64,000 nt of DNA, taken from Acidobacteriota bacterium. Lineage in GTDB: Bacteria > Acidobacteriota > Vicinamibacteria > Marinacidobacterales > Marinacidobacteraceae. The position numbers and the translations under genes were made by a program. Under the pieces are notes generated by a model that was given only the letters and a program-made list of their open reading frames with translations, was not told the origin of the DNA and did no database searches. How positions within the stretch are numbered: the first letter of the stretch is position 1; every line of letters starts with the position of its first letter. Location of the stretch: contig JAJDVI010000094.1 of the NCBI GenBank assembly GCA_022826195.1, positions 70,714 through 134,713 on the forward strand, given 5' to 3'. Shown here piece by piece: positions 7,555 through 60,515 of the stretch.

Positions 7555-11872
<4,318 letters not shown>

Positions 11873-16218: not shown

Positions 16219-16895
16219 CGGTCCCGGCCTCCCATCTTCTTCTGGAGGCTGAGGGTCAGCGCCACCACCACGAAGGAGAACGCCAGCAGGCTCCCGGAGA
16301 GCAGGTGCGCCGTGCCCCACTCCATGAGTTCCACGTGGTCGTAGATGGCGATCGACAGCACCCGGGTGGCGCCCGGGATGTTGCCGCCGATCATCAGGAT
16401 GACCCCGAACTCCCCGACCGTGTGCGCGAAACCGAGCACCGCGCCGGCGATCAGCCCGGGCCGGGCGAGCGGCACGGCGACGCTCCAGAAGGCGTCCCAG
16501 GGCGAGGCCCGCAGCGTGGCGGCCGCCTCCAGGGGACGGTCGCCGACGGCTTCGAAGGCGCTGCGGATGGGCTGCACCGTGAAGGGCAGCGAATAGATGA
16601 TCGATCCGATCACGAGGCCCGGGAAGGAGAACGCGAGGGACCGCCCGCCGAACAGCCGGGCGACGAAGCCCCCGGGCCCGTCGGGCCCCAGGGCGATCAG
16701 CAGGTAGAACCCCAGGACGGTGGGCGGGAGGACGAGGGGAAGCGCGACCAGCGCCGCCACCGCCTCCTTGAAGCGGAAGCGGGTCCTGGCGAGCCACCAG
16801 GCGATCGGGGTCCCGAGGAGCAGCAGGAAGACCGTCGTCACCCCCGCCAGCTCGAGCGTGAGCCGGATGGGCGGCCAGATGGTCTCGGCGTTCAC
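16215..16895 (-). CDS. modB: Molybdate ABC transporter permease
   Basis: CysTW/ModB-type permease (EAA-loop region ...[19 protein letters not shown]...); GTG start overlaps the modA stop. Confidence 0.85.
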
Positions 16896-17663
16896 GGTTC
16901 GCGGCGTCCGCCGGGCGCCGGTTGCTCGGTGCGGTAGCCGTGCCGGCGAAGGATCTCCCGGGCCGCTCCCGATCCGAGGAATTCGAGGAAGCGGGCGGCG
17001 GCCGGGTTGTCGCGGCCGGCCTCGAGCAGAACCGCCTGCTGCCGGATGGGAGCGTGGAGGCGCTCCGGGACGAGCCAACGGGACCCGTCCGTGCTCCGGA
17101 CCACCTGGGAGAGGGCGAGGAATCCCAGTTCGGCGTTGCCGGTGCGCACGAACTGGTGCGCCTGGGACACGTTCTGGCCGATGACCTGACGATCCCGCAC
17201 GATGTCTTCGACCCCGAGCGCCCGGGCCGCCTCGAGCGCCGCCCGGCCGTAGGGGGCGAGCGCGGGATTCGCGAGCGCGATGCGCCGGAGGCCGGGATCC
17301 CGGAGGGCGTCGGACCCGGTGACCCGCCCCGTTTCCGCGCTGAAGAGGACGAGCCTCCCCACCGCGTAGGTCCGGCGGCTGCCCGGGACGGCGAGCCCTT
17401 CGCGCTCCGCGAGTTCCGGGCGCGCCTCGTCGGCGGCGAGGAACACCTCGAAGGGAGCGCCCTGGAGGATCTGGGCGTAGAGCTGGCCGGTGGAGCCGAA
17501 GCTGAGGAGCGCGGCGTCTCCGGTGGCGTCCTCGAACGCGGCGGCGATCTCGCGAGCAGCCGCGGTGAAGTTCGCGGCGACCGCCGCTCTGACGGTATTT
17601 CCCCCAGGTGGTGTCCCGGCGAACGCGGCTCCGGCGAGCAGGATCGCGCACAGCACTGCCATG
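16892..17663 (-). CDS. modA: Molybdate ABC transporter periplasmic substrate-binding protein
   Basis: Signal peptide ([16 protein letters not shown]) followed by a ModA-like fold. The ORF-table 679-aa call is an upstream frame run-on. Confidence 0.8.
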
Positions 17664-17683
17664 AGGATTGGTGGGGTTGCGCC

Positions 17684-17736
17684 GTGCGCGGTGCGGAGCC
17701 CCGCGCGTGCCGGTCTGGAGACCGGCGTTCCAAGCC
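17684..17736 (-). repeat. REP-like palindromic repeat copy
   Basis: GTGCGCGGTGCGGAGCCCCGCGCGTGCCGGTCTGGAGACCGGCGTTCCAAGCC, between modA and the CRTAC1 gene. Confidence 0.75.
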
Positions 17737-17751
17737 GCTCTGTCATCCGGA

Positions 17752-19419
17752 TCAGGAGCCGCCGCAGCCCGGGGGTTCCACCACCAGCAGATAACGGCCG
17801 GGCGCGGCCTCGATCTCCTGCTCGCATCCCGAGAGCCAGCGGACCCGGACCCCGAACGGTCCGTCGCGATCCCCCAGGCCGAAGAAGACCCGGGGATCGC
17901 TGGACGCCAGGTAACTGCCCGCGGCCCGGGCTTCCCGAACCTGGGTGAGTGCTCCTCCGGTCAGTTCCAGGCGGGCGCCGACGCCGTCGCGCGGGCTGCG
18001 GCGGCCCACCAGGCGGAACCCCGCCCAGGCGGCGGTGGTGTCGGTGTCGTTGCGGAAGAGCGCCGGCGGCCCGTTCATGACGGTCGCGAGCAGGTCGGTG
18101 TCGCCGTCGTCGTCGTAATCGGCGAAGGCAGCGCCGCGATACACCCGGGGAACCTCGAGCGCGGTCGGCGGCACCTCGTCGAAGGCGCCGTCCGTCCGGT
18201 TCCGGAAGACGAGGCCCCGCTGGGCGTAGTCGCTCTCGGTGATCCCGCCCTCGACCTCCGGATAGACGTGCCCGTTCAGGACCACCAGATCCAGCCAGCC
18301 GTCCCGGTCGAGGTCGCGGAAGCCGGTTCCCCAGCCGAGGTAGGGATAGCTCGGTTCGGCCACGCCGGCGGCGAACGATTCGTCGAGGAACCAGCCCCCT
18401 CCCACCGCCCGGTAGATGGTGTTGTAGTCCTGCGAGAAGTTGGTGACCACGATGTCCAGCAGTCCGTCGTTGTCGTAGTCGCCGAGGTCCACCCCCATGC
18501 CCGCCTGCGCGCGGCCGTCCTCGTTGTAGGCGACCCCCGCGGAAAGGCCCACGTCGGTGAAGTCGAATCCTCGGGCCCCGGTGTCGTTCCGGTAGAGGTT
18601 GTTGGGGGTCTGGTCGTTCGCCACGTACACGTCGAGGTCCCCGTCGTCGTCGAGATCGCCGAGCACGACCCCGAGACCGAAGTACCGCTCGGCGCCGATG
18701 GCCTGTCCCTCCACCCGCGCGAAGCGGCCGTCGGAAAGTCCCCGGTAGAGGAGCGCCGGCGCCGGGGTCAGGCCGTTCGGGCCGCACATCACCGGCAGCC
18801 CCCGGAAGAGGCAGTACGGCTCCTCTCCCGGCCGCGGTGTTTCGTCCACCTCGAAGTCCACGTAGTTCACGACCACGAGATCGGAGACGCCGTCCCGGTC
18901 CAGGTCGCCGAACGCGGCCCCGGTTCCCCACTGCGGATCGTCCAGCCCCACCGCCGCGCCGGCCTCCTCGAACGTCCCGTCGCCCCGGTTCCGGTAGAAG
19001 AGGTTCTTCCCGTAGCGCGTCACCAGCAGGTCGAGGTCGCCGTCGTTCTCGTGGTCCACGACGAAGGCCCCCTGCCCCCAGCCGTAGGACTCGAGTCCGG
19101 CCGGACCCGTCACCTCCCGGAAGCGCCCGCCGCCCTCGTTCCGGAACAGCGCGTTCGAGAGGCTCCGGCTCGCGTCGTACCCGAGACGGGACCCGTTGAC
19201 GAGGAACAGGTCCAGGTCCGCGTCGCCGTCGTAGTCGAAGAACGCCGCGCCGCTACCCGTCGTCTCGAGGATGAAGTCCTTGCTGCGGACGCCGCCGTAC
19301 ATGTTGATGAAGCGGAGGCCCGACGCCTCCGCGACTTCGGTGAAACGGATTTCCGGCTGCGCGGACGCGGCCGCCGCCAGCGCGAGGAGGGCCCCGGCCA
19401 TGGCGCTGACGGCCTTCAT
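17752..19419 (-). CDS. CRTAC1-family protein (FG-GAP/VCBS repeats plus ASPIC/UnbV domain), paralog 2
   Basis: Signal peptide [21 protein letters not shown], repeated DxDGDGxxD FG-GAP motifs and a C-terminal UnbV_ASPIC-like region. The ATG overlaps the upstream stop as ATGA. Confidence 0.8.
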
Positions 19420-29140: not shown

Positions 29141-30253
29141 GTGAACCGACGCCGGGTCCTGGCGGCGCTTGCGGCGTCCGTAGCCGCGTACCCGTTTCGG
29201 GTCAGCGGTAGCCAGGGCGGCGTCCTCCCGTGGAGCGATCTCGAGCCCCTTCCCTCCGGCACCCGAGCCCGCTACACCGACCTCACCCGCATCACCGGAG
29301 AGACCGTCCCGGACGGGGAGTTCTTCGTCCTCCACCACGGCGAGGTCCCGGATCTCGCGGCGCCGGCGTTCCGGCTGGGGATCGGCCACCGGGGCGCTCC
29401 TCCGGTCCGCACCTTGGGGCTCGACGAACTGGCCGGCCTCCCACGCAGGGAAGCGGTGACGGCCTTCGAGTGCTGCGGGAACGGCGGCATCGGGATGCAC
29501 GGCCTGGTGGGCGCCGCCCGCTGGAGAGGGGTGCCGCTCGCGCCCCTCCTCGAGGGACTCGTCGACGCCCACGCGCGCGAGATCGTTTTCTTCGGCGCCG
29601 ATCACGCGGAAGAACGCCTCCGCGGGAACCGCTATCCGGGCCGCTTCGCGCGGAGCCTGCCGGTCGCCGACGCGCTCGCCCCGGAGGTGATGCTGGCGGA
29701 CACGATGAACGGGGAGCCGCTTCCCCGGGAGCACGGCGGACCGCTGCGGCTGATCGTCCCCGGGTTCTACGGAGTCTCCCAGGTGAAGTGGGTGGAGCGG
29801 ATCGAGGTCTGGCCGGCCCGGTTCGCCGGCTGGTTCCAGGCCAAGGACTACGTCACCGTGCGCGGGACGGAAACCCCCTCGGGCATCCTCCACACCGCGA
29901 GCGCCATCGGCCGGATGCGGCTCAAGTCCATCGTCACCCGAGTCGAGAGCGTGGCCGGCGGGGATCTCTCGGTCCACGGGCTCGCCTGGAACGACGGCGC
30001 CTCCGGGATCGCCGGGGTCGAGGTCAGCCTGGACGGCAACCCGTTCGAGGGAGCCGAACTCCTTCCCGCCGCGCACCGCTTCGGGTTCCGCCACTTCCGG
30101 CTCGCCTGGCCGGCGCCGGCGCCGGGAGAACACCGGCTCGTTTCCCGGGCGCGCGACGCCAGCGGCGTACAGCCGACCGAGGAGGAGGCGTCGCGTTACA
30201 AGGCGACACCCTGGGAGAACAACGGCCAGGTCGTGCGGCGCATCCGGATCTGA
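29141..30253 (+). CDS. Sulfite-oxidase-family molybdopterin-dependent oxidoreductase (MsrP/YedY-like) with Tat signal
   Basis: Tat motif MNRRRVLAALAAS. The Oxidored_molyb region contains ...FECCGNGG...HGGPLRLIVPGFYG. Confidence 0.75.
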   Translation: MNRRRVLAALAASVAAYPFRVSGSQGGVLPWSDLEPLPSGTRARYTDLTRITGETVPDGEFFVLHHGEVPDLAAPAFRLGIGHRGAPPVRTLGLDELAGLPRREAVTAFECCGNGGIGMHGLVGAARWRGVPLAPLLEGLVDAHAREIVFFGADHAEERLRGNRYPGRFARSLPVADALAPEVMLADTMNGEPLPREHGGPLRLIVPGFYGVSQVKWVERIEVWPARFAGWFQAKDYVTVRGTETPSGILHTASAIGRMRLKSIVTRVESVAGGDLSVHGLAWNDGASGIAGVEVSLDGNPFEGAELLPAAHRFGFRHFRLAWPAPAPGEHRLVSRARDASGVQPTEEEASRYKATPWENNGQVVRRIRI

Positions 30254-42326: not shown

Positions 42327-44450
42327 ATGCCTGACAAACGATCCAGGACGATCACCGCGTACGAGGAGAAACGGGATTTCGGACGGACACCCGAACCCCC
42401 CGCGGGAGGCGCGGCGGACGCCGGGCCGCCCGGAGGCCGCCGCTTCGTGGTTCACCGCCACGAGGCGCGCCGCCTCCACTACGACCTGAGGCTCGAGATG
42501 CACGGAGTCCTCCGTTCCTGGGCAGTCCCGCGAGGCTTTTCCTACGACCCCGAGGTGAAGAAGCTCGCGGTCCGGACCGAGGACCACCCGCTGGCCTACA
42601 CGCACTTCGAGGGGGTGATTCCCGAGGGCGAGTACGGCGGCGGCACCATGGGCATCTGGGACCGGGGTACCTACGAGATCACCGAAGGGGGCGAGGACCA
42701 GGGAGCCGCCGGCGTGGAAGCCGGGAAGCTCGTGATCCGGCTGGCCGGCCGCAAGCTGCGCGGGGCCTGGCACATGGTGAAGACGAAGCGGGGCCCGGAC
42801 GAATGGCTGCTGTTCAAGGGGCGCGACCGGTACGCGCGGGACGACGCCGAGCGGCAACCCTTCTTCGACCTGAAAGGCGCCAGGCCCTGGACCGGGGAAC
42901 CCGGCCCGGTCCCGGTGGTCCCCGACGGCGAGCGGGAGCCCTTCACCGACCAGGACTGGATCTTCGAGCCGCAACTCCAGGGCATTTCCGTCTTCCTCGA
43001 ACGCTCCGGGGCGGAGCTTCAGCTGACGCGCGGAGACGACGGAGCCCCGCTCGATCTGCCGGAGGTCGTGGCCGAGGCCGAAGCGGTTCGCGCGGAGGCG
43101 TTCCTCGCGGGCGGCACGCTCGTCAGCACGGACGAGGCGGAAAGGCCCTCACCCGAGCGCCTCGCGGCGCGGCTCGACGGCGATCCGTCGATCCCGGTCT
43201 CGCTCTACCTGAACGACCTGCTCCGCTACGAGGAATGGGACATCCGCGACGTCCCGCTGCTCGAACGGAAAGAACTGCTTTCGACCCTGCTGCCGCCGGG
43301 CAAGACCCTTCTCTTCGGGGACCACGTTGCCGTCCGCGGAGAGGAGTTCCACGCGGCCTGCGAGGCGGCGGGGCTGCCGGGGACCGTCGCGCGGCGCGGC
43401 GGCGCGGCCTATCCGGCGGCCGGGACTCCCCCCGGCGGGCCGGCCGCCCCTCCGGACTGCCTGCGCATCCCTGCCCGCGGTGCCCGAGCCCCGGACCCCT
43501 CCGAGCACCTCCTCGCGGGTCTCTCGCGCCAGCGGGCGGTGCGGGAATCCGCGCAGCCGCTCCACTTCACGAACCTCGACAAGGTGTTCTGGCCCGATCA
43601 CGGGTACACCAAGGGGGACCTGATCCGCTACTACGACCGGGTCGCCGAACACCTGCTCCCGTATCTGCATGAGCGGCCGTCGCACCTGCTCCGCTACCCC
43701 GACGGCGTGGGGGGCAAGGCCTTCTACCAGAAGGACCTGCCGGATCACACGCCGGACTGGATCGTCAGCGAAGAGATCCCTTCGGGACACCGGGGCGAGA
43801 CCATCCGCTACCTCGTCGTGAACGACGCGGCGGCGCTCCTCTACGCCGCGAACCTGGGCAGCATCGACATCCACCCCTGGCTCTCGCGCCGAACCCGCCG
43901 GGACACGCCCGACTGGGCGGTCTTCGACCTCGATCCCGGCGGCGGCCCGTTCAGCGACGTGATGCGTCTCGCCCGGGCGTTCGGCAAGGTGCTCCGCGGG
44001 ATCGGGCTCCGCCCCTACCTGAAGACCTCGGGCGCCACCGGACTGCACATCTACGTACCCCTGGAACCGGTGTATCCCTACGACGTGGTCCGGCAGTTCG
44101 CGGAGGCCGTCTCCACGCACGTCGCCGGCGAGCACCGGGACATCGCGACCGTCGAACGGACCACCTCCCGGCGGCGAGGACGCGTCTATCTCGACTTCCT
44201 GCAGAACCGGCGCGGACAGACCGTGGTCCCCCCGTACGCCGCCCGTCCCGTACCCGCGGCGTCGGTCTCGACCCCGCTGGATTGGGACGAACTCGACGCG
44301 GACCTCCATCCCGGGCGCTTCACCATCGCCAGCCTGCCCGAGCGGCTCGACCGGCTCGGGGACCTGTTCGCCGGCACCCTCCACGATCGCCAGCCGCTCC
44401 TCCCGGCGATCCGGAAGTTTCAGGAGCGCTATCTGCGCAAGTCAGACTGA
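42327..44450 (+). CDS. LigD-like NHEJ protein: 3'-phosphoesterase plus degenerate ligase remnant plus polymerase/primase
   Basis: The PE domain is RRFVVHRHEARRLHYDLRLE...WDRGTYEI. The Pol domain is HFTNLDKVFWP...YLVVNDAAALLYAANLGSIDIHPW...KTSGATGLHIYVPL. The middle region aligns to ligase motif I, but the catalytic Lys is replaced (EPQLQG instead of EIKxDGxR). Confidence 0.75.
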   Translation: MPDKRSRTITAYEEKRDFGRTPEPPAGGAADAGPPGGRRFVVHRHEARRLHYDLRLEMHGVLRSWAVPRGFSYDPEVKKLAVRTEDHPLAYTHFEGVIPEGEYGGGTMGIWDRGTYEITEGGEDQGAAGVEAGKLVIRLAGRKLRGAWHMVKTKRGPDEWLLFKGRDRYARDDAERQPFFDLKGARPWTGEPGPVPVVPDGEREPFTDQDWIFEPQLQGISVFLERSGAELQLTRGDDGAPLDLPEVVAEAEAVRAEAFLAGGTLVSTDEAERPSPERLAARLDGDPSIPVSLYLNDLLRYEEWDIRDVPLLERKELLSTLLPPGKTLLFGDHVAVRGEEFHAACEAAGLPGTVARRGGAAYPAAGTPPGGPAAPPDCLRIPARGARAPDPSEHLLAGLSRQRAVRESAQPLHFTNLDKVFWPDHGYTKGDLIRYYDRVAEHLLPYLHERPSHLLRYPDGVGGKAFYQKDLPDHTPDWIVSEEIPSGHRGETIRYLVVNDAAALLYAANLGSIDIHPWLSRRTRRDTPDWAVFDLDPGGGPFSDVMRLARAFGKVLRGIGLRPYLKTSGATGLHIYVPLEPVYPYDVVRQFAEAVSTHVAGEHRDIATVERTTSRRRGRVYLDFLQNRRGQTVVPPYAARPVPAASVSTPLDWDELDADLHPGRFTIASLPERLDRLGDLFAGTLHDRQPLLPAIRKFQERYLRKSD

Positions 44451-45725
44451 AGCGGTCCGGACGTCCACCATCGCGCCGAGCGAGCGCAGCTTCGCCGGCA
44501 GGTCGGAATACCCGCGCTGCACGGTCTCGAGCGGAGTGATCCGGCTCTCGCCGGAAGCGGCGAGCGCCGCCGCGATGAGCGCCATCCCCGAGCGGATGTC
44601 ACGGGCGTCGAGGTCCCTTCCCCGCAGCCGGCTGGGGCCCGTGACGATGACGCGGTGAGGATCGCAGAGGAACATGTCCGCTCCCATCCCGATCAACTGT
44701 TCGAGGGAGAAGAGGCGGAGTTCGTACATCCAGTCGTGGACGAGCGTCGCACCTGCCGCCGCCGTCGCCAGCACCGTCGTGAGACTCACCATGTCGCTCG
44801 GGAAGCCCGGCCACGGCGCGGTGGTGATGCGCCGGACCGCGTGCAACCGCGACGGCTCCACCAGGAGGCGATCCTCTCCTTGCCGGAGCGCCACGCCGAG
44901 ACGCCGCAGGACCGCGGTGATCGGCTCCAGGTCCACGGCCCGGGCTCCCCGGATCTCCACCGTTCCCCCGGTCATTGCCGCCAACGCCGCCCAGCTCCCG
45001 GCCTCCACGAAGTCTCCCGCGAGCGTCCACGAGGCGCCTCGCCGCCGGCGGCTCCCGGCCACTCGCAGGGTCGGAGTGCCGGCGCCCTCGACCTGGATTC
45101 CCATCCGCTGAAGGAAACCGCAGAGCTCGACGACGTGCGGCTCGCAGGCCGCGTGGCGGATCTCGGAGACGCCGTCCGCGCCGGCGGCGGCCAAAAGGGC
45201 GGTCTCCGTCCCCGTGACGGACGCCTCCTCGAGATAGAACGAGGCGCCGCGCAGGCCGTCCGGCGCCTCGAGCAGCCGGCCCGGTCCCTCGACCTCCCGC
45301 ACCCCCAGGGCGCCGAGCGCGGCCAGGTGGACGTCAAAGCCCCGGCGTCCCGCGAAGTCTCCCCCCGGCTCCCCCATCTGCACCCGGCCGCGGCGCGCCA
45401 GGAGGGGCGCCGCGAGCAGCACCGAGCCGCGGAGCCGTCCCACCCCCGCGGGGTCGGGCTCCTCGCTGCGCAGATCCGCCGCGCGGACCCGCACCCGGTC
45501 GGTCCCGACCCCCTCGATTTCGGCCCCCAGGCCCTCGAGCACGCCGGCCATGGTGGCGGCGTCCCGAATACCGGGCATGTTGTTCAGCTCGCACCACTCG
45601 TCGGTGAGCAGGCAGGCGGCGAGGAGCGGCAGCGCCGCGTTCTTGTTCCCCTCCACCTGCACCCGCCCCTCGAGCCGGGCGCCTCCCTCGACGACCAGGG
45701 TGGTCGGCGGCGCCTCCCGGCTCAC
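44442..45725 (-). CDS. murA: UDP-N-acetylglucosamine 1-carboxyvinyltransferase
   Basis: EPSP-synthase-fold MurA (GNKNAALPLLAA...). The GTG start at 45725 overlaps the murB stop as GTGA. The ORF-table 630-aa call is an upstream run-on. Confidence 0.85.
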   Translation of the reverse strand: MSREAPPTTLVVEGGARLEGRVQVEGNKNAALPLLAACLLTDEWCELNNMPGIRDAATMAGVLEGLGAEIEGVGTDRVRVRAADLRSEEPDPAGVGRLRGSVLLAAPLLARRGRVQMGEPGGDFAGRRGFDVHLAALGALGVREVEGPGRLLEAPDGLRGASFYLEEASVTGTETALLAAAGADGVSEIRHAACEPHVVELCGFLQRMGIQVEGAGTPTLRVAGSRRRRGASWTLAGDFVEAGSWAALAAMTGGTVEIRGARAVDLEPITAVLRRLGVALRQGEDRLLVEPSRLHAVRRITTAPWPGFPSDMVSLTTVLATAAAGATLVHDWMYELRLFSLEQLIGMGADMFLCDPHRVIVTGPSRLRGRDLDARDIRSGMALIAAALAASGESRITPLETVQRGYSDLPAKLRSLGAMVDVRTASV

Positions 45726-46654
45726 GACGGGAAGTCTCCCAGCAGGACCAGTTCGGGCACCAACCGCACACCGAAAGCCGCGGCCACCGCCGCCTGGCAC
45801 CGTCCGAGCAGCCGATGCACGTCGGCCGCGGTGGCGCCCGGTCCCGCGGTCAGGAAGTTCGCATGGACCTCGGACACCCGGGCGCCGCCGACCCGGGCGC
45901 CCTTCATGCCGGCTCGATCGAGCAGGGCTCCGGCGGCGCAGGGGACGTCGGGCGGGAGGGAAGCCTCCCCGGGGTCCGGGTTTCGGAAAGCGCAGCCGGC
46001 GCTCGGTTGGGCAAGCGGCTGCGTCCGTTTCCGGAACGCGAGGGACGCCCGCGCCCGCCGGCGCAGGACGGCCGGATCTTCCGGCTGAACCCCGAAGTCG
46101 GCGGAGAGCAGGACACGTCCCTGCCCCGCCAGGGCGGCGCCCCCCGGGCCGAACCCCGCGGCTTCGGCGCGGACCGTCTCGACCTTGCCCGCGTCGTCGA
46201 CGACCCGCAGGCCGGTCACCACTTCGCCCACCTCCCGGCCGCCGAAGTGAGCGTTCCCGTGGATCGCGCCCCCCACGGTGCCCGGCGTGCCCGCCCAGGA
46301 CTCCAGCGCGGCAAGCCCGCGCTGGATGCACCACCGAACGAGGCCGTTCACGGTCATTCCGGCGAAGGCCCGGACCGTCCGGCGGTCCACCTGCCGGGCT
46401 CCGCCCCCCTTCACCCGGATCACCGCGCCGCGAATCCCGTGATCGGAAACCAGCACGTTGGACCCTCCCCCGAGCAGCGTGGCCGGCAACCCACCCTTCC
46501 GCACCGCGGAGAGCGCCCCCAGGAGTTCCTCTTCGCTACCGGCCTCGATGAACCACTCGGCCGGTCCTCCGAGCCCGAGCGTCGTCAGCGGAGCGAGCGG
46601 GTGATTCGGCCGAAAGCGCCTTCCGTTGGGCAGCGGACCCGGTCCCGAGCCCAT
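45722..46654 (-). CDS. murB: UDP-N-acetylenolpyruvoylglucosamine reductase
   Basis: FAD-binding PCMH-type N-terminus (TTLGLGGPAEWF...LLGGGSNVLV) and a MurB C-terminal domain. Confidence 0.85.
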   Translation of the reverse strand: MGSGPGPLPNGRRFRPNHPLAPLTTLGLGGPAEWFIEAGSEEELLGALSAVRKGGLPATLLGGGSNVLVSDHGIRGAVIRVKGGGARQVDRRTVRAFAGMTVNGLVRWCIQRGLAALESWAGTPGTVGGAIHGNAHFGGREVGEVVTGLRVVDDAGKVETVRAEAAGFGPGGAALAGQGRVLLSADFGVQPEDPAVLRRRARASLAFRKRTQPLAQPSAGCAFRNPDPGEASLPPDVPCAAGALLDRAGMKGARVGGARVSEVHANFLTAGPGATAADVHRLLGRCQAAVAAAFGVRLVPELVLLGDFPS

Positions 46655-49657: not shown

Positions 49658-50851
49658 ATGAAATCCACGCGTCGCAGTTTCCTCAGTCTCGCGCCAGCCG
49701 GCGGCGGCAGCGCCGCTTCCCTCCATGCGATCAGCGCCCGGGGCCGGGAGGCCTGGGAAGCCGAGAACGGTTTCCGTGGCGCGCCGGTCTTCGTTCCGCC
49801 CCCCGAGGACGACGAAGTCCGGATCAGCAGCAACGAGAACCCTCTGGGTCCGGGCCCCTCCGCGGTGGCGGCGCTCCGCAGCGCCTACACCTCCATCATG
49901 CGCTATCCGATGAACGCCCAGATCAGCGGGACGGACCTCCGCGCGAAGATCGGGGAGATGTACGGGGCCAAGGCCGAGAACGTGACCCTTTCGGCCGGCT
50001 CCGGGGAGATCCTGCGGAACGCGGTCCGCGCCTACACCGGGCCGGACAAGGCGCTGGTCACCGCCGAGTGCTCCTACGAGAGCCCCGTCCGGACCGCCCG
50101 CTACTTCGGGGCTCCGGTCAAGGCCATCCCGATGAAGGGAGACCTCGGGCTCGATCTCGACAAGATGGCGGGCGCGGCGATCGGCGCCGGGCTCGTGTTT
50201 CTCTGCAACCCGAACAACCCCACCGGGACGGTGCATTCCATCGCCGACGTGACCGACTTCGTGCGGTTCGTCAAGAAGGAGTCGCCCTACACCGCCATCC
50301 TCCTCGACGAGGCCTACTACGACTACGTCGCCCACCCGGGCTTCGACACCGGCGCCCCGCTCGCCATGGAGTACCGTGACGTGTTCGTGGGGCGGACGTT
50401 CTCGAAGGCGTTCGGGATGGCCGGCCTCAGGATCGGCTACGGGTTCGGCCAGGCCGACACCATCGCGAAGATCGCGCCGCTGGCCCTCACGTTCGGCACT
50501 TCCGTGCTCTCCATCGCCGCGGCGATGGGGTCGCTCGAGGATCCGGACTACATCAAGAACGAGATCCAGCGGAACGAGGAAGCCCGCCGGTTCACCCACG
50601 ACTTCTTCTCGGGCCACGGCCTCGATCCGGTTCCCAGCAACACGAACTTCATCTTCGTGAACATCGGACGGCCGGCGAGCGAGTTCCGCGCCGCCTGCGC
50701 CGAGCGGGGCATCATGGTGGGGCGGGACTTCCCTCCCTACCAGGACACCCACGCCCGCATCTCGATCGGCACCCTCGAGGAGATGCAGCGCGCGACCGCG
50801 GTCTTCGCGGAAGTGCTCGGGCTCGCCACCGCCGATAACCAGCAGCAGTAA
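49658..50851 (+). CDS. Histidinol-phosphate aminotransferase-family (class I/II) PLP aminotransferase with Tat signal, paralog 1
   Basis: Tat motif KSTRRSFLSLAP and a HisC-like core (NENPLGP...LCNPNNPTG...SKAFGMAGLRIGY). Confidence 0.75.
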   Translation: MKSTRRSFLSLAPAGGGSAASLHAISARGREAWEAENGFRGAPVFVPPPEDDEVRISSNENPLGPGPSAVAALRSAYTSIMRYPMNAQISGTDLRAKIGEMYGAKAENVTLSAGSGEILRNAVRAYTGPDKALVTAECSYESPVRTARYFGAPVKAIPMKGDLGLDLDKMAGAAIGAGLVFLCNPNNPTGTVHSIADVTDFVRFVKKESPYTAILLDEAYYDYVAHPGFDTGAPLAMEYRDVFVGRTFSKAFGMAGLRIGYGFGQADTIAKIAPLALTFGTSVLSIAAAMGSLEDPDYIKNEIQRNEEARRFTHDFFSGHGLDPVPSNTNFIFVNIGRPASEFRAACAERGIMVGRDFPPYQDTHARISIGTLEEMQRATAVFAEVLGLATADNQQQ

Positions 50852-50896
50852 CCGCCGAAGAACCGCAATCCACCGCTACGAGGAGGTAGCCACCCC

Positions 50897-52072
50897 ATGC
50901 TCTCCCGCCGCAGTTTCCTGAGTCATGCCTCCGCCGGCGCCGCCGGCCTCTACGCCGCGACCTTCGTCCAGTCGCGACTCCGCGAGCAGTACGCGTTCGC
51001 CGCCCAGATGGGGATCGCCCCCGAAGAGGCGATCAACCTGGCGAACAACGAGAACTCGCTCGGCCCCGGCGAGTTCGTCATGGACGCTCTCGACTCGGTC
51101 ATCGGCCCCGAAGGCGTGATCGCCGGCCGCTATCCGTTCCGCTTCACCGGCCCGCTGCGGGAGGCGATCGCCGAGAAGTGGGGTGTGAAGACGGAGAACG
51201 TCCTCGTCGGCGCCGGCTCCACCCAGATCCTGGTGGACTGCACGCACCAGTACGCGAGCAAGGAGAAAGCGCTGGTCGGGTCCCTGCCGACCTACGAGGA
51301 ATGCTTCGGCTACGCGGCGCTGATGGGCTACCGGACCAAGGCGGTGCCGCTGACCGCCGACTTCAAGATGGATCTCGACCAGACGCTCCACGCCTGCAAG
51401 GGAAGCGGGATGCTGTTCTACTGCAACCCGAACAACCCGGTGGGGACGCTCGTGGACCCGTCCGAGGGCACGGATTTCCTGATGCGGGCGCTCGACGCCG
51501 AGAAGGACCTTCGCATCCTGGTGGATGAGGCCTACATCGACTACGTGACCACCCCCGGTCACGAGACGATGATCCCGGCGGCGATCCAGAACCCGCGCCT
51601 CATCGTGGCGCGCACCTTCTCGAAGGCCTACGGGATGGCCGGGCTGCGAGTCGGCTACGCGATCGCCCACGAGGACACCATCGCGGAACTCGACGAGTTC
51701 CACCTGGGCAACTCGGTCAGCACCCCGGCGCTGGTCGCCGCCAACGCCGCGCTCGAGCGCGACAAGGCGGACCCCGACTACCTCCCCAACGAGAAGAAGC
51801 GGAACGCCGAGGCGCGGGACTTCATCATCAAGTTCTTCGCCGACCGCGGCCTGAGCGCCACCGACGCCCAGACGAACTTCATCTTCGTGGACACCGGGAT
51901 GCCGATCGAGCAGTTCCAGGCGGCCTGCGCCGCGGAAGGCGTCCGCGTCGGGCGGCCCTTCCCGCCGCTGTGGACCCGCTGCCGCATCTCCATCGGCACG
52001 ATGGACGAGATGCAGCGCGGCGCCGCCAAGATGGCCACGGTCCTCGACGCCGCCCAGAAGCTGGCCGCGTAA
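50897..52072 (+). CDS. Histidinol-phosphate aminotransferase-family PLP aminotransferase with Tat signal, paralog 2
   Basis: Tat motif LSRRSFLSHASAGAAGLYA and a HisC-like core (NENSLGP...YCNPNNPVG...SKAYGMAGLRVGY). Confidence 0.75.
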   Translation: MLSRRSFLSHASAGAAGLYAATFVQSRLREQYAFAAQMGIAPEEAINLANNENSLGPGEFVMDALDSVIGPEGVIAGRYPFRFTGPLREAIAEKWGVKTENVLVGAGSTQILVDCTHQYASKEKALVGSLPTYEECFGYAALMGYRTKAVPLTADFKMDLDQTLHACKGSGMLFYCNPNNPVGTLVDPSEGTDFLMRALDAEKDLRILVDEAYIDYVTTPGHETMIPAAIQNPRLIVARTFSKAYGMAGLRVGYAIAHEDTIAELDEFHLGNSVSTPALVAANAALERDKADPDYLPNEKKRNAEARDFIIKFFADRGLSATDAQTNFIFVDTGMPIEQFQAACAAEGVRVGRPFPPLWTRCRISIGTMDEMQRGAAKMATVLDAAQKLAA

Positions 52073-52073
52073 C

Positions 52074-52125
52074 GGCCTGGAACGCCGGTCTCCAGACCGG
52101 CACCGCGGCGCTCCGCGCCGCGCAC
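52074..52125 (+). repeat. REP-like palindromic repeat copy (identical to the copy at 3283)
   Basis: Read directly; it follows the aminotransferase stop immediately. Confidence 0.8.
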
Positions 52126-52160
52126 GCCCTGAGGCCATCGGCGCCGGAAGGATCGATCCG

Positions 52161-52212
52161 TCGGCCTGGAGCGCCGGCTTCAGCCGGCACAGCGGCGGCG
52201 GAGCGCCGCGGG
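52161..52212 (+). repeat. Degenerate REP-like copy (GGCCTGGAGCGCCGGCTTCAGCCGGCACAGCGGCGGCGGAGCGCCGCGGGCG)
   Basis: About 70% identical to the consensus and in the same orientation; in tandem with the previous copy. Confidence 0.5.
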
Positions 52213-52292
52213 CGATTCATCGCCGCTTTCCCGCCGAGCCACTGGCAGGCGTAGTCCTCCCTCCCATACCCTGAACGGACAGGAGGCGACCC

Positions 52293-53762
52293 ATGCCCGT
52301 TCGAACCCCAACTGTCCTGATCCCGCTTCTCCTCGCAGCCACCTTCGCGGCCGCCCAGCCCGGCGTCCACACCTCCAGCAGCGGGGGCGAAGTGATGCGC
52401 CTCCTCCGGCGGGACAAGCTCGACCTGATCCTGCCGGGCGCCATGCGCGACAACGGCGTGGACATGTGGATCCACGTCACCCGGCACGGCGATCCCGACC
52501 CGATGGCCTACTGGTTCGGGAACACCTACGGCTACCTCGTCTTCACCGACGTCGGCGACCGGATCGAGCGGGCCGCCTTCGGGAGCGCCGGCGCGGTCCC
52601 GGACATCGACGTCCGCGGTTCCGACGATTTCGCCCGCACCATCTCCAGCTACGGCCGGGGGTACCAGATGGCCTTCAACTACGGCGACGAGGTCTACGAC
52701 GAGTTCACCGAGTTCGTCGCCGAGCGGGACCCGCAGACGATCGCCGTGAACACCTCCGAGTGGCTGGCCGAGGCGGACGGGTTGTCCCACACCTCCTACC
52801 TGAAGCTGGTGAAGATCCTGGGGCCCACCTACGCCGAGCGGATCGTCTCCGCGGAGAACGTCATCACTGACTTCCTGGTGCGGCGAACGGTGCGGGAGGT
52901 GGCCGAGCAGATCAACAACCTCGAGGCCGCCCGCCAGCTCACCCAGGAGGCCCTGGCCCGGATCGAGCCGGGACGCACCACGATCCGGGAGATCACCACC
53001 TGGGCCCGGGAGTGGGCGTACGAGCGGCACCTGGCCGGATTCAGCACCGGGGGGCGGGGCGGCATCCGCCTCTACTACACCGCGGTGTCCGAGGACCCGC
53101 CCTACCCGCCGGACGCCCGCTACTGGATCTGGCACGAGGACTACGTCTTCCAGCGCGGCGACTTCTTCGCCTTCAACGTCGGGGTCAACTACATGGGCTT
53201 CGGAACCGACACGAAGACCCACGCCTACATCCTGCGCGAGGGCGAGACCGCTCCTCCGGAGAGCATCCAGAAGCTCTTCGACCTCGCGATCGCCGGCCAG
53301 TGGATCATGCGGCCCCACATGCGCGTCGGTATGACCGCCAAGGAGTCACTCGACGCCATGGTCGCCGCCATGGAAGAGGCCGGCTACATCTACACGCCGT
53401 TCGTCAACTCCGGAATCCAGGGGATCGGCCGGACCCCCGACGGGGAAAGGAACCTCGACTACGTGATCGTCCAGGAGGGGCTCGGCGACGGCGACCAGCC
53501 GGGTTTCGCCATCGACCACCACGCCTACGGCACCGTCGGCACCGGGACCGTCGGTCCCTCGGTGACGAACTTCCGCGCCGACCGGCACCACCTGGTGATC
53601 CAGGAGAACCACCTCTTCGCGTACGAGTACATGGTGCACATGAACATCCCGGAACGGCCCGGATTCCCGCTGGCGATCAACATCTCGAACCCGCACGTGG
53701 TGACCAGCAAGGGCATCGAGTGGCTCCAGCCACCGAACGAGAAGATCTTCCTCATCAACTGA
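52293..53762 (+). CDS. M24-family metallopeptidase (creatinase/Xaa-Pro aminopeptidase-like), secreted
   Basis: Signal peptide followed by a Creatinase_N-like region and a pita-bread C-terminal domain. Confidence 0.65.
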   Translation: MPVRTPTVLIPLLLAATFAAAQPGVHTSSSGGEVMRLLRRDKLDLILPGAMRDNGVDMWIHVTRHGDPDPMAYWFGNTYGYLVFTDVGDRIERAAFGSAGAVPDIDVRGSDDFARTISSYGRGYQMAFNYGDEVYDEFTEFVAERDPQTIAVNTSEWLAEADGLSHTSYLKLVKILGPTYAERIVSAENVITDFLVRRTVREVAEQINNLEAARQLTQEALARIEPGRTTIREITTWAREWAYERHLAGFSTGGRGGIRLYYTAVSEDPPYPPDARYWIWHEDYVFQRGDFFAFNVGVNYMGFGTDTKTHAYILREGETAPPESIQKLFDLAIAGQWIMRPHMRVGMTAKESLDAMVAAMEEAGYIYTPFVNSGIQGIGRTPDGERNLDYVIVQEGLGDGDQPGFAIDHHAYGTVGTGTVGPSVTNFRADRHHLVIQENHLFAYEYMVHMNIPERPGFPLAINISNPHVVTSKGIEWLQPPNEKIFLIN

Positions 53763-53770
53763 CCGGGCGG

Positions 53771-54724
53771 TCAGCCGAGTTCCCCGAGCAGCCGCTCCCA
53801 GGCTTCGCGTTCGCGCTCGGGGGCGAAGAGCGCCGCCCGCGCCGCCTGGCGCCGCGCGAGGTCCCCGAGAAAACCGGGGTCCGTCTCCGCGCGCACCAGG
53901 AGGCCCCGGAGCGCCCCGGTATCTTCGGGCGGGAACGTGCCCGGGTGGTCCGGACCGAGGAGGCCGACGTTCCCCGGGATCCGGGAGGCGATGACCGGGA
54001 GCCCGGCGACCACCGCCTCCGACACGACGTTGGCGCCTCCCTCCGTCCGCGAGGAGATGACCATCGCGTGCGTCCGTTCGTAGAGGCGCCGCACGCGCGA
54101 GGCCGGCACTTCGCCGAGCCACCGGTAACGCGGGTTGCGCGCCATTTCACGGCGCGCGGCCGCCGCCCAGTCCGGGTCACGGGCGCCCCCGGCGTGGAGC
54201 ACCCGCAGACGCGACTCCGCCGGCAGCTCCCGCGCCGCGAAGGCCGCCCGCAGCGGGTCCTTCTCCCGGCGGAGGTGCCCGACGACGGACACGTCGAACG
54301 TCCGCTTCGAGGGGCGGCGCCCCCCGCTCCCGACGGCAACCGACTGGTGCACCACCCGCACCCTGGCGCGGAACTCCGGCGGCAGCGCTTCCCCGGCGAG
54401 GTCGTGCAACCCGACGAGCAGGTCGGCGCACTCGAGCGACCGGCGGGTGGTCTCCGGCTCCGTGTGCAGGAAGCCGTAGATGTCGGTCCCGGTGAGCGCC
54501 ACGATCAGCGGACGCGTGGGAAAACGATCCCGGAAACGTTGGATCGAAGCGGCGCTCCGCCAGGCGTGGAGGGCGATCAGCGCGTCCGCGGCGGCTCCGT
54601 CCCAGGCCGTCTGCACGGCCACCCGATGGCCGAGCGACCGCAGCACCGCCGCCCAGCGCCTCGCGGTGATCCGGTTCCCGAAGCGGGACCTCGGGCCCGC
54701 GGGGGTTACTAGAATGATTCGCAC
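53771..54724 (-). CDS. Small GT-B glycosyltransferase (GT4-like); SenB-like candidate
   Basis: The 317-aa product has a GT-B C-terminal nucleotide-sugar-binding region (ISSRTEGGANVVSEAVVAGLPVIAS). It is divergently paired with the EgtB/SenA homolog. Confidence 0.7.
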   Translation of the reverse strand: MRIILVTPAGPRSRFGNRITARRWAAVLRSLGHRVAVQTAWDGAAADALIALHAWRSAASIQRFRDRFPTRPLIVALTGTDIYGFLHTEPETTRRSLECADLLVGLHDLAGEALPPEFRARVRVVHQSVAVGSGGRRPSKRTFDVSVVGHLRREKDPLRAAFAARELPAESRLRVLHAGGARDPDWAAAARREMARNPRYRWLGEVPASRVRRLYERTHAMVISSRTEGGANVVSEAVVAGLPVIASRIPGNVGLLGPDHPGTFPPEDTGALRGLLVRAETDPGFLGDLARRQAARAALFAPEREREAWERLLGELG

Positions 54725-54744: not shown

Positions 54745-56040
54745 ATGACCCAGCGTGTTCCGGCCGATCATCTCGCGGCCATCATGGAGGATGCCCACCG
54801 GCGCAGCATCGCGCTGACCAGCGGCCTCGACGAGCGCCAGTTGATGGGGCCGCGGATGTCCATCGTCAATCCGCTGCGGTGGGAGATCGGGCACGTCGCA
54901 TGGTTCTACGAGACCTTCATCCTTCGTGACCTCTACGGCGACGCAGCGATCCTTCCGCACGGCGACGAACTGTACGACTCGGCGGCCGTCCTCCAGGAGA
55001 CCCGCTGGGACCTGCCCCTCCTCGGGATGGACGAAACGGTCCGCTACGCCGAAACCGTCAAGGACCGCTGCCTGGAACGGCTGCCGCCGGGGACGGCGAG
55101 CGAGCGGGACAGCTTCATGTACCAGTTCGCCACCTTTCACGAGGACATGCACACCGAGGCGTACGTCTATTCCCGGCAGACCCTCGGCTACCCGGCGCCG
55201 CGGCTCGGCCGAAGTCCCGCCCGGGAACCGTCGGGCGATTGTCCCGGCGACGCCGGCGTACCGGGGGGGACCTTCCGCCTCGGAGCGGAACGGGACGCGC
55301 CCTTCCGCTACGACAACGAGAAGTGGGCGCATCCGGTGGACGTGCGGCCGTTCTCGATTGCGAAGGCGCCGGTCACGAACGCGGACTTCGCCGAGTTCGT
55401 GGACGCCGGGGGCTACCGGCGGCGGGAGTTCTGGAGCGAGGCGGGCTGGGACTGGCGAGAGCGGGCCGGGGCCTCGCATCCCGTCTACTGGCGCTCCGAC
55501 GGAGCGGACGCGTTCCGGGCGCGGCGCTTCGACGAGATCGCGCCGCTGCCGCCGAACGAACCGGTCATCCACGTCAACTGGTTCGAGGCGAACGCCTGGT
55601 GCGCCTGGGCCGGGCGCCGCCTCCCCACCGAGATCGAGTGGGAGGCCGCCGCCCTCGGGGAACCCGGCGGAGACCGGCTGGCCGCGACGAAGCGGACCTA
55701 CCCGTGGGGCGAGGCGCCTCCCGACCCGCGGCGCGCCAACCTCGACGGCTGGTCGCTCGGGTGCATCGAGGTGGGGGCGCTTCCCGACGGGGACAGCGCC
55801 TTCGGATGCCGGCAGATGCTCGGCAACGTCTGGGAATGGACGGCGGACACCTTCGAGCCGTTCCCGGGTTTCCGCCCCGACGCCTACCGGGACTACTCCG
55901 CGTCCCAGTTCCACCGGACAAAGGTCCTGCGCGGCGGCGCCTGGGCGACGCGCAGCCGGATGCTGACCGGCCGCTATCGCAACTTCTTCGGCCCGGAACG
56001 CCGCGACATCATGGCGGGGTTCCGGACCGTACGCGAGTAA
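54745..56040 (+). CDS. EgtB/SenA-family nonheme-iron sulfoxide/selenoxide synthase (DinB_2 plus FGE-sulfatase domains)
   Basis: The DinB-like N-terminus has His motifs (IGHVAWFYETF, FHEDMHTE). The FGE-like C-terminus contains ...HVNWFEANAWCAWAGRRLPTEIEWEAAA...GNVWEWT. Confidence 0.8.
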   Translation: MTQRVPADHLAAIMEDAHRRSIALTSGLDERQLMGPRMSIVNPLRWEIGHVAWFYETFILRDLYGDAAILPHGDELYDSAAVLQETRWDLPLLGMDETVRYAETVKDRCLERLPPGTASERDSFMYQFATFHEDMHTEAYVYSRQTLGYPAPRLGRSPAREPSGDCPGDAGVPGGTFRLGAERDAPFRYDNEKWAHPVDVRPFSIAKAPVTNADFAEFVDAGGYRRREFWSEAGWDWRERAGASHPVYWRSDGADAFRARRFDEIAPLPPNEPVIHVNWFEANAWCAWAGRRLPTEIEWEAAALGEPGGDRLAATKRTYPWGEAPPDPRRANLDGWSLGCIEVGALPDGDSAFGCRQMLGNVWEWTADTFEPFPGFRPDAYRDYSASQFHRTKVLRGGAWATRSRMLTGRYRNFFGPERRDIMAGFRTVRE

Positions 56041-56043
56041 GGG

Positions 56044-56484
56044 CTATTCGTCCGAGGCGCCCGGGTACACCCGCTCGCCCTCGTAGTCCCTGAGACCGCA
56101 GAAACCGACGACTTCGTATCCGTTCGCTTGTAGCAGCTCCGCGGCACGCGCGGCTCTTCCGCCACCCTGTCAAGCGGTGAGGACGGGGACTCCCGCCGGG
56201 AGCTCTCCCATCCTCGCCTCCAATTCGTCGATCGGAATGTGGACGAAGCCGTCGATCGTGCCGTGCTCGGCGAGTTCCTCGTCGGTACGGACGTCGAGCA
56301 GCACGGCGCCGTTCGCGAGCGCGGCGTCGATGTCCGCCGCCTCGACCCGCGGGGCCGGCTCGGGCGCCGCCGGTTCGGCTTCGGCAGCCGTGGTTTCCTC
56401 GGCCGGGGGTTCGCCGCCGCCGCAGCCCCAGCCAAGGACGGCTGCCGCGAGGGCGACGACGCCAAGTGAGAGTGCTCTCTTCAC
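56044..56484 (-). CDS. Single-domain rhodanese-like sulfurtransferase, exported, with in-frame TGA (predicted selenocysteine) at the catalytic Cys position
   Basis: Signal peptide/lipobox-like N-terminus (LGWGCGG). The rhodanese fold ...VLLDVRTDEELAEHGTIDGFVHIPIDEL...VPVLTA-[TGA]-QGGGRAARAAELLQANGYEVVGF aligns residue-for-residue with the GlpE active-site loop [26 protein letters not shown]. The frame stays open for 41 more codons to a TAG. Confidence 0.7.
56139..56154 (-). promoter_or_regulatory. Candidate SECIS-like hairpin 15 nt downstream of the in-frame UGA (mRNA GCCGCG-CGUGC-CGCGG)
   Basis: Read directly. An identical hairpin sits at the same 15-nt spacing in the second rhodanese paralog, and its loop contains G and U. 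Confidence 0.4.
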
Positions 56485-56504
56485 CGTGAACCTCCTGTTC
56501 AGAG

Positions 56505-56846
56505 TCAGTCGAGCGGGCGGTACTCCCGCGCGCCCGTATATTGCTTGAGGCCGCTGAAGCCCACAACCTCGAAACCGGCGTTCTCCAGAATCGCCGCGGC
56601 ACGCGCGGCCCGTGGTCCCACCATTCAGGTGGTCAGGACCGGACGATCCCGGGGCAGCTCGTCCAGCCGATCGGCCAGCTCTCCGAGGTGGATGTGGACC
56701 GCTCCGGGGATGGTCCCGGACTCGGCCAGTTCGAGGGCCGTGCGCACGTCGAGCAGGAGAACCTGCGCGTCGCTCAGCACCTCGTCGATCTGACCGGCGG
56801 CGACGAACGGCGCGCGCGTGCCGAGCGCGCGCCCCATCAGGCTCAT
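56505..56846 (-). CDS. Single-domain rhodanese-like sulfurtransferase, cytoplasmic, with in-frame TGA (predicted selenocysteine) at the catalytic Cys position
   Basis: ...VLLLDVRTALELAESGTIPGAVHIHLGEL...RPVLTT-[TGA]-MVGPRAARAAAILENAGFEVVGFSGL...; the frame continues 39 codons to a TGA. Confidence 0.7.
56593..56610 (-). promoter_or_regulatory. Candidate SECIS-like hairpin 15 nt downstream of the in-frame UGA (mRNA GCCGCG-CGUGC-CGCGGC)
   Basis: Read directly; a 6-bp stem with a 5-nt loop. Confidence 0.4.
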
Positions 56847-56929
56847 GGACCGAGCGTATCAGTCGGGGAGCCCGAGCCGCAGGGAAGTCGCTGGCTGGCT
56901 GTCTCGCTTCCCTGCGGCCGGCGCGCCGG

Positions 56930-59637: not shown

Positions 59638-60102
59638 ATGCGTTCCATTTCCGCCGGCAAATTCAAGGACACCTGCTTGAGAGTCCTGGACGAGGTCGCC
59701 GCGAACCGCGTGCCCGTGACGATCACCAAGTGGGGCCGTCCCGTCGCCCGGCTGCTCCCCTTGATCGGTCGGGCTCCCACCCGTGAGAGGACGGCGCCTG
59801 CCGCCACCGGCGTTGAGGAGACGGTTCAGCCCTACGGCTCGGACGCCGCCGCAGCGGCCCCCGAAGATGCGACCCAGCGGTTGCACCGGCTGGCGGGCGA
59901 ACTCGGCTTGTCGCCGGATGATCTGCTCCGAGAGGCGCTCGACGCCTACACCGGGGACAGCGCGATCGACGAACTCATCGAGCGCGCCAAGCGTCCCGTC
60001 GGGGCGTTCCGCTCCGGGCGGAGCGACCTCGCGGAAAAGCACGACGAGGCATGGGCGGAGATCCTGGAGGAGGAGATGGAGCGGTGGCGGTTACCCGAGT
60101 GA
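59638..60102 (+). CDS. Type II antitoxin, Phd/YefM-like N-terminus with a long acidic C-terminal extension
   Basis: The N-terminus MRSISAGKFKDTCLRVLDEVAANRVPVTITKWGRPVARLLPL matches a Phd/YefM fold. Its stop overlaps the vapC GTG start as GTGA. Confidence 0.7.
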   Translation: MRSISAGKFKDTCLRVLDEVAANRVPVTITKWGRPVARLLPLIGRAPTRERTAPAATGVEETVQPYGSDAAAAAPEDATQRLHRLAGELGLSPDDLLREALDAYTGDSAIDELIERAKRPVGAFRSGRSDLAEKHDEAWAEILEEEMERWRLPE

Positions 60103-60515
60103 CGACCCCCGTCTTCCTCGATACGTCGGCGTTCTACGCGCTGCTCGACGCCGAGCAACGGTTCCACGACCACGCGAAACGAACCTGGGACCGCCTGCTC
60201 TCCGGCGTTCGCCAGGCGCGACCCCGTTTGGTCACCCACCACGCCGTCGTGGTGGAAGCGAGCGTGCTCACGGCGCGGCGACTGGGCATGCACGCGGTCC
60301 GGGAACTCCACAACGGGCTGCTCCCCATCGCCGAAATCGTCTGGATCGACGAGAAACTGCATGCTCGCGCCACGGCGGCCATGTTCGCCGCCGGCCGGCG
60401 CAACGTCTCCCTCGTGGACTGGCTCTCCTTCGAGGTGATGCGCGAGCGCCGGATCCGGCACGCCTTCACCTACGACGGAGACTTCGCGAAACAGGGATTC
60501 CTGCCCGCGCCGTGA
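60099..60515 (+). CDS. vapC: PIN-domain toxin VapC
   Basis: PVFLDTSAFYALLD with conserved acidic residues of the PIN fold; about 138 aa. Confidence 0.7.
   Translation: MTTPVFLDTSAFYALLDAEQRFHDHAKRTWDRLLSGVRQARPRLVTHHAVVVEASVLTARRLGMHAVRELHNGLLPIAEIVWIDEKLHARATAAMFAAGRRNVSLVDWLSFEVMRERRIRHAFTYDGDFAKQGFLPAP

Follow-up and report, generated by a model that had tools for sequence, protein, structure and literature searches.

What do two adjacent rhodanese genes encode when each is interrupted by a single in-frame TGA at the codon of its catalytic cysteine? The question is raised by a pair of minus-strand genes, referred to here as gene A and gene B, within a 64,000-nucleotide stretch of an Acidobacteriota genome (assembly GCA_022826195.1, contig JAJDVI010000094.1, positions 70,714 to 134,713); the whole stretch is called the window. 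Sequence comparison indicates that A and B are very probably full-length rhodanese-domain selenoproteins, with UGA read as selenocysteine (Sec). A conserved UGA, a downstream part translated under selection, a covarying hairpin resembling a selenocysteine insertion sequence (SECIS) and the correspondence of Cys and Sec among homologs occur together, and Sec decoding is therefore strongly supported. The first-pass annotation of this DNA had proposed the same reading for two adjacent minus-strand rhodanese open reading frames (ORFs), each with one TGA; its coordinates and description hold, and this evidence supports its interpretation.

Layout of the gene pair

The two genes and their elements, all on the minus strand, are as follows.

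56846..56505, minus strand: gene A, predicted cytoplasmic single-domain rhodanese; ATG start, TGA stop at 56507-56505, 113 codons including Sec74
56627-56625, minus strand: in-frame TGA of gene A, predicted selenocysteine codon; codon 74, followed by 39 open codons
56484..56044, minus strand: gene B, predicted lipoprotein-type exported single-domain rhodanese; GTG start, TAG stop at 56046-56044, 146 codons including Sec105
56172-56170, minus strand: in-frame TGA of gene B, predicted selenocysteine codon; codon 105, followed by 41 open codons
56491..56496, minus strand: Shine-Dalgarno sequence AGGAGG of gene B, 6 nt before the GTG start, read from the sequence
56422..56484, minus strand: putative signal peptide of B with a lipobox-like L-G-W-G-C end, then a Gly/Pro/Glu/Ala-rich linker, by inspection

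Separated by a gap of 20 nt between the end of A and the start of B, the genes form a two-gene unit, and their products share about 56% identity. The 39 and 41 open codons past the TGAs, already counted in the first-pass annotation, are borne out by the reading frames. It had also expected ORF callers to yield a truncated fragment from each gene, and the NCBI deposits agree: the entries are Acidobacteriota proteins cut short at 73 or 104 residues and named 'rhodanese-like' or 'hypothetical'. A search for a sigma-70-like promoter or an intrinsic terminator around the pair found none. Between the stop of a CehA/TolB-like gene and the start of gene A sits a 21-nt inverted repeat (56867-56927; 81% complementary, core CCGCAGGGAAG ... 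CTTCCCTGCGG, without a T-run) that could be a terminator or a regulatory hairpin.

The gene A product has no signal sequence on inspection, whereas that of gene B begins with MKRALSLGVVALAAAVLGWGC, ahead of its linker. Among B orthologs with a clear start, a basic N-terminus, a hydrophobic stretch and an [A/G]-C recur in all species, again by inspection; the L-G-W-G-C box of the window is non-canonical, and a canonical lipobox, L-I-G-C, is present in contig L086. Judged from these N-terminal features, B is most likely a lipoprotein facing the periplasm, in line with the earlier suggestion that one paralog is exported and the other cytoplasmic.

Predicted selenocysteine at the catalytic position of a rhodanese domain

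The fold of A and B is assigned from Pfam and PDB alignments. When the in-frame stop is rendered as Cys, A scores 46.5 bits and B 41.3 bits against the Rhodanese family PF00581 (cut-off 22.2 bits); both matches cross the TGA and cover profile positions 3/4 to 87/88 of 102. The best solved homologs are PDB entries 6pfz, 3nta, 3icr, 8a56 and 5ve3 (E values of 1e-11 to 1e-9), and the catalytic Cys of these domains aligns with U74 of A.

Alignment with 15 Cys-containing homologs places the TGA column at the invariant Cys of their C-x-x-G-x-R loop in every one, and Gly77 and Arg79 (gene A numbering) are likewise invariant. The corresponding loops read U-M-V-G-P-R in A and U-Q-G-G-G-R in B. Both proteins thus carry the motif of catalytically active rhodaneses, in which the nucleophile would be Sec. 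The proposal that the TGA sits at the catalytic Cys stands, as the solved domains and all 15 homologs agree; the aligned partner motif is corrected here to U/C-x-x-G-x-R.

More distant homologs have Cys at the UGA column, as seen in all matches from L028 onward, in P0075-P0119 and in L095 and L101-L103. Among these, L095, a 53%-identical relative, has TGC at the catalytic site.

Conservation of the TGA among relatives

Full-length tblastn matches of A, running through the TGA, were found in 25 species at 71-98% identity in a scan that took one genome per species. These are sponge-associated Vicinamibacteria, including "Ca. Marinacidobacterium" and "Ca. Spongiisocius variivorans", and several of the genomes are closed chromosomes. 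A literature search on the host taxa Spongiisocius and Marinacidobacterium found nothing, and one on sponge Acidobacteria nothing useful. The tandem order of A then B is kept in all 25 species, and with the window included the position of the TGA is identical in all A genes (26 of 26) and all B genes (26 of 26). On these alignments, conservation of TGA at the catalytic codon is far beyond chance. Neither a sense codon plus frameshift nor a real stop, either of which the first-pass annotation had named as grounds for rejecting its reading, was found in the close relatives.

Further contigs retain the TGA as well (L085, L086, L088-L094 and L096-L097), and the DNA of the window recurs on metagenome scaffold ENA ERZ23491491. 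A protein search gave about 75 clusters, 66-97% identical to A, all of which end at residue 70-77, the position of the TGA.

A distant clade at 44-57% identity (L098-L100) also has TGA at the catalytic position, within the loop PIVAY-U-RRGGR. Its members are the metagenome contigs MKWU01000610.1, Ga0209021_1004875 and LXNI01005555.1, where the sequence continues as PIVAY-U-RRGGRASRAAA; their hairpin has the CGUGC loop described below on a partly different stem, which points to a shared mode of SelB recognition beyond the Vicinamibacteria pair.

In a single case, L087 (1844-2248 of JGI Ga0247387_10296316), neither TGA nor Cys is present at the site (VLGASGDAR), and the downstream hairpin is mismatched. 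The protein is a B-like lipoprotein homolog with other residues at the Sec/Cys position and in the loop (PILVLGASGDAR), and it may be a derivative that has lost catalytic activity.

Translation downstream of the TGA

The 36-41 codons past the TGA are open in every species. By the Nei-Gojobori method over all sequence pairs, the ratio of nonsynonymous to synonymous substitution rates (dN/dS) of gene A is 0.148 before the TGA (codons 2-73) and 0.148 after it (codons 75-110); for gene B the values are 0.132 and 0.121. At many codons past the TGA synonymous variation is plentiful while the amino acids are fixed. The frame past the TGA is translated in both genes, purifying selection on it equals that on the part before the TGA, and the coincidental downstream frame that had been considered as a refutation is not what these sequences contain.

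A candidate SECIS hairpin past each UGA

Starting exactly 15 nt past the UGA in both genes is a compact hairpin.

56593..56609, minus strand: candidate SECIS hairpin of A, GCCGCG-CGUGC-CGCGGC; 6-bp stem, 5-nt loop, -9.9 kcal/mol
56138..56154, minus strand: candidate SECIS hairpin of B, GCCGCG-CGUGC-CGCGG(A); 5-bp core, 5-nt loop, -7.8 kcal/mol

The basal G-A of the gene B hairpin is unpaired, and the stem could gain 2 bp across a tandem G.A internal loop (-10.5 kcal/mol when extended). In the bacterial SECIS (bSECIS) model the loop measures 3-9 nt and the stem 4-16 bp, the loop lies 16-37 nt from the UGA, the minimum free energy is <= -7.5 kcal/mol, and a G, usually followed by G or U, stands within the first two loop positions (PMC13188914). 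In A and B the distance from UGA to loop is 21 nt and the loop has its G at position 2, then U or G; both hairpins agree with the published bSECIS model on all four points.

The stem is preserved across relatives and covaries. Its five core pairs are intact in 37 of 37 distinct sequences, and in the 25-sequence set 96% of stem cells are paired. Because the stem of A encodes A-A-R-A-A, just two of its pairs can vary synonymously at both partners, and each of these two covaries. Compensatory changes are C-G to U-A in L018 (three species have U.G intermediates), G-C to A-U in L027 and G-C to C-G in the distant clade (L098/L099). The covariation score of 0.126 compares with 0.051 in shuffles, none of 500 shuffles reaches the observed value, and no slid register comes close. 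A seventh stem pair (18/36) was rejected, as it holds in only 15 of 37 sequences.

Synonymous sites are constrained over the same region. The Ala codons of the gene A stem have a synonymous entropy of 0.24-0.62, as against 1.1-1.8 at most Ala codons elsewhere in the gene. In gene B the 33 nt past the UGA have hardly changed synonymously across 26 species, with a synonymous difference at codons +1..+11 in only 72 of 325 pairs. The conserved downstream structure that the first-pass annotation had made a test of its reading is thus present, fits the bacterial SECIS model and covaries.

Across about 0.6 Mb (window and loci) the hairpin motif is restricted to A and B, always 15 nt past the in-frame TGA. 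Other raw matches of the hairpin-plus-TGA scan were in-frame-looking TGAs in L015/L090 and in L022, and a second TGA 8 nt upstream of the Sec codon of A; matches in L007 and L010 were rejected as lying out of frame inside rpmB. A further Sec gene at TGA 44450 was likewise rejected, its same-frame continuation being murA on the opposite strand.

Selenocysteine weighed against other outcomes

Several observations weigh against Sec decoding. Searches by tblastn with E. coli SelA, SelB and SelD found no selA, selB or selD, and ARAGORN found no tRNA-Sec, in the 64-kb window or in any flank fetched around 25 genomic and some 15 metagenomic loci. Rfam likewise gives no SECIS match, either in the window at the gathering score or in positions 56000-56900 at E <= 10. 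The short stem lies in a run of Ala and Arg codons (AARAA), so that protein constraint explains part of the hairpin conservation; the compensatory changes are each one single event; and the Cys ortholog L095 keeps a partial hairpin. As for the sel genes, their absence from the window and the fetched flanks neither supports nor refutes Sec decoding, and the presence next door of senA and senB, described below, implies that the organism makes selenophosphate (bioRxiv 10.1101/2022.04.13.486033).

Recoding of UGA with insertion of Cys or another residue in place of Sec, by a suppressor or tRNA-Sec-like tRNA such as a SelC*-type tRNA-Cys acting via SelB or an acidobacterial allo-tRNA, is quite improbable. 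Precedents come from Mukai et al. (PMC5389517), who described mimics of tRNA-Sec with a possible capacity for Cys insertion at opal codons, and unusual suppressor-like allo-tRNAs in Acidobacteria, and the inserted residue is not readable from sequence alone. A general suppressor would, on the other hand, clash with TGA as the normal stop of 32 of the 44 window genes, that of gene A included, and by this usage the codon is not reassigned genome-wide. For Cys a TGY codon would serve, yet no relative in the clade has TGY. The only nearby tRNA-like match, called "tRNA-?(Glu|SeC)" by ARAGORN in L010, was rejected as a GC-rich intergenic repeat and not a tRNA. This repeat occurs in several copies (window 52123-52354; L010 14500-14725; L011 5046-5810) and in L011 forms a tandem array of about 82 nt.

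Less probable again is a split protein, in which translation would stop at the TGA and restart to give two polypeptides that assemble into one domain. Gene A has the look of it, its TGA standing directly before an invariant ATG (TGAATG) in a typical stop-restart arrangement. Gene B has no in-frame start codon past its TGA (CAG GGT GGC), and its downstream part is therefore not translatable alone, yet its hairpin and the spacing of that hairpin match those of A. In other members of the family the codon following the TGA is AAC, ACC, ACG or CGG, and the active-site loop of a split protein would be left without its nucleophile.

The view that the TGAs are real stops, of pseudogenes or of truncated N-terminal fragments with a coincidental downstream frame, deserves next to no credence: gene callers and NCBI do annotate 73-residue and 104-residue proteins (MDE2881251.1, MDE2881252.1), but proteins of that length would be missing the catalytic loop and the final third of the rhodanese fold, the open downstream codons have a dN/dS (0.12-0.15) equal to that upstream, and the same TGA persists across lineages differing by up to about 50% in protein sequence.

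Under Sec decoding, then, UGA in A and B would be decoded as selenocysteine instead of causing termination; A would be a cytoplasmic enzyme of 113 residues and B a periplasmic lipoprotein anchored in the membrane. Sec would take the place of the nucleophilic Cys in the rhodanese loop U-x-x-G-x-R. By analogy with Cys rhodaneses, it may be loaded with a sulfane sulfur or selenium atom, in selenenyl-sulfide or perselenide form, for transfer to an acceptor. We infer, and do not see directly, Sec as the inserted residue, SelB as the factor and the substrate.

The selenoneine genes and the rest of the window

Adjoining gene B are two genes of selenoneine synthesis.

54745..56040, plus strand: senA, selenoneine synthase; NF041186, 489 bits against a cut-off of 420
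53771..54724, minus strand: senB, selenosugar synthase; TIGR04348, 408.6 bits against a cut-off of 300; divergent from senA

The products of senA and senB are the C-Se bond-forming enzymes of this pathway (Kayrouz et al., bioRxiv 10.1101/2022.04.13.486033). Convergent with B, senA ends so close to it that the stop codons are 3 nt apart. No senC/SelD homolog was found in the window or the fetched flanks, and the full cluster of senA, senB and senC is not present there.

The arrangement A-B-senA-senB is shared by 15 of the 25 species, and four metagenome contigs have it too; the other 10 species have A-B without senA/senB within the fetched 10-kb flanks, so that the selenoneine link is facultative. 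In those 10, A-B follows the same M14 peptidase gene where neighbours could be matched, and in L018, L023 and L026 it stands directly before the same aminotransferase genes. A functional connection of A-B with selenoneine synthesis is a minority possibility. Its specific form, a selenium relay in which B and A would hand a Sec-bound perselenide to selenophosphate synthetase for the senB/senA pathway, we regard as unlikely; if true, A and B would be accessory components of selenoneine biosynthesis and themselves selenoproteins.

A gene for an M24-peptidase-like protein of 489 aa (52293-53762) adjoins senA/senB, and the three stand together in 13 of the 25 species. The trio is jointly absent from the fetched flanks of 10 distant species and partial in L012 and L014; the three genes resemble a single cassette that can be inserted. 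Two tandem hisC-like aminotransferase paralogs (49658-52072, about 42% identical) are kept nearby in 16 of the 25 species, and they may be linked to histidine-derived selenoneine.

Between the CehA-like gene and rpmB is a pair encoding a PhdYeFM-type antitoxin and a PIN-domain toxin (59638-60515), kept in most close relatives. A modABC molybdate transporter operon lies at 15118-17749, and a sulfite-oxidase-like molybdoenzyme at 29141-30253 gives weak SorA/SoxC-type matches that fall far short of the family cut-offs. Otherwise the window consists of housekeeping genes, of which modABC, lysA, fabI, ligA, murA, murB, a LigD-like gene, peptidases and TPR proteins were identified; no selenium gene is among the remaining identified window genes. 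At 71% guanine plus cytosine (GC), ORFs drawn from the first start after a stop are much too long (7555-10734, 15118-19413 and 44442-46334): that of ligA comes out at 1059 aa, and those of modC, modB and modA run into one another. Profiles of GC content at third codon positions (GC3) were used to place the real genes in this sequence.

Comparison with known systems

Selenoproteins of the rhodanese kind have been catalogued since 2005 (PMC1088965), and of the five forms given in a 2026 review two have a UxxG motif (PMC13188914); the earlier remark that rhodanese-related selenoproteins are a recognised family is confirmed by both. The UxxG forms are 'form 2' (MBM9537886.1) and 'form 4', the rhodanese-related sulfurtransferase of the Sargasso Sea (MCY3690685.1) (PMC13188914, PMC1088965); neither accession is among the 16 protein clusters looked up here. 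Like these forms, A and B have a single PF00581 domain with predicted Sec for the catalytic Cys, followed by x-x-G (U-M-V-G and U-Q-G-G), and are predicted by the same logic of Sec/Cys pairs and bSECIS. New with A and B are the tandem pairing of a predicted cytoplasmic with a predicted lipoprotein member, the host clade of sponge-associated Vicinamibacteria and the senA/senB neighbours.

With rhodanese_LYCAU (NF041203; 'form 3', L-Y-C-A-U or CxU motif) the two proteins share their nature as predicted rhodanese-domain selenoproteins. They fall outside that family in score (A reaches 24 bits against a cut-off of 115 and B has no match) and in the sequences VLTT-U and VLTA-U, which have no Cys two residues before the Sec. 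The TsoB rhodanese/DsbD-like selenoprotein (NF045694; UxxxxU) gave no match at E <= 0.01, and A and B each contain a single U.

Among Cys-containing proteins, the closest parallels are the solved domains named above, which belong to NADH oxidase, CoA-persulfide and NAD(P)H polysulfide reductases and to the persulfide dioxygenase-rhodanese fusion BpPRF; their C-x-x-G-x-R aligns residue for residue with U74-M-V-G-P-R, and they carry persulfide sulfur on the loop Cys. In those proteins the rhodanese part is joined to a flavoprotein or dioxygenase domain, whereas A and B stand alone and have a predicted Sec.

The hairpins resemble the E. coli fdhF/fdnG-type SECIS, as modelled by Zhang and Gladyshev, in being coding-region hairpins past the UGA with a small loop bearing G then U/G. 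They depart from it in their very short stem (5-6 bp) and in having no bulged U; they are candidate SelB sites.

The tRNA 2-selenouridine synthase SelU/MnmH has a rhodanese domain, and the rhodaneses that carry selenium use Cys. Rhodanese-bound perselenide is reportedly a substrate of SelD (work attributed to Ogasawara, Lacourciere and Stadtman, 2001; see also reference B15 of PMC1794560). A and B are like these carriers in their rhodanese fold, and their location beside selenoneine genes suggests, by analogy, a comparable role. Sec-containing sulfur or selenium carriers next to senA and senB would provide a testable lead on the supply of selenium to selenoneine synthesis.

The marine-sponge Acidobacteriota clade gains a well-supported predicted selenoprotein pair, and an annotation error repeated in dozens of public genomes is now corrected. 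The compact SECIS hairpin, together with its spacing, could help to find the rest of the selenoproteome of the clade. Set beside the known systems, A and B add to the known rhodanese selenoprotein kind and leave the knowledge of recoding and of rhodaneses unchanged; what is specific to them is the tandem cytoplasmic and lipoprotein pair, the host clade, the very compact candidate SECIS, the mis-annotation in databases and the frequent selenoneine neighbours.

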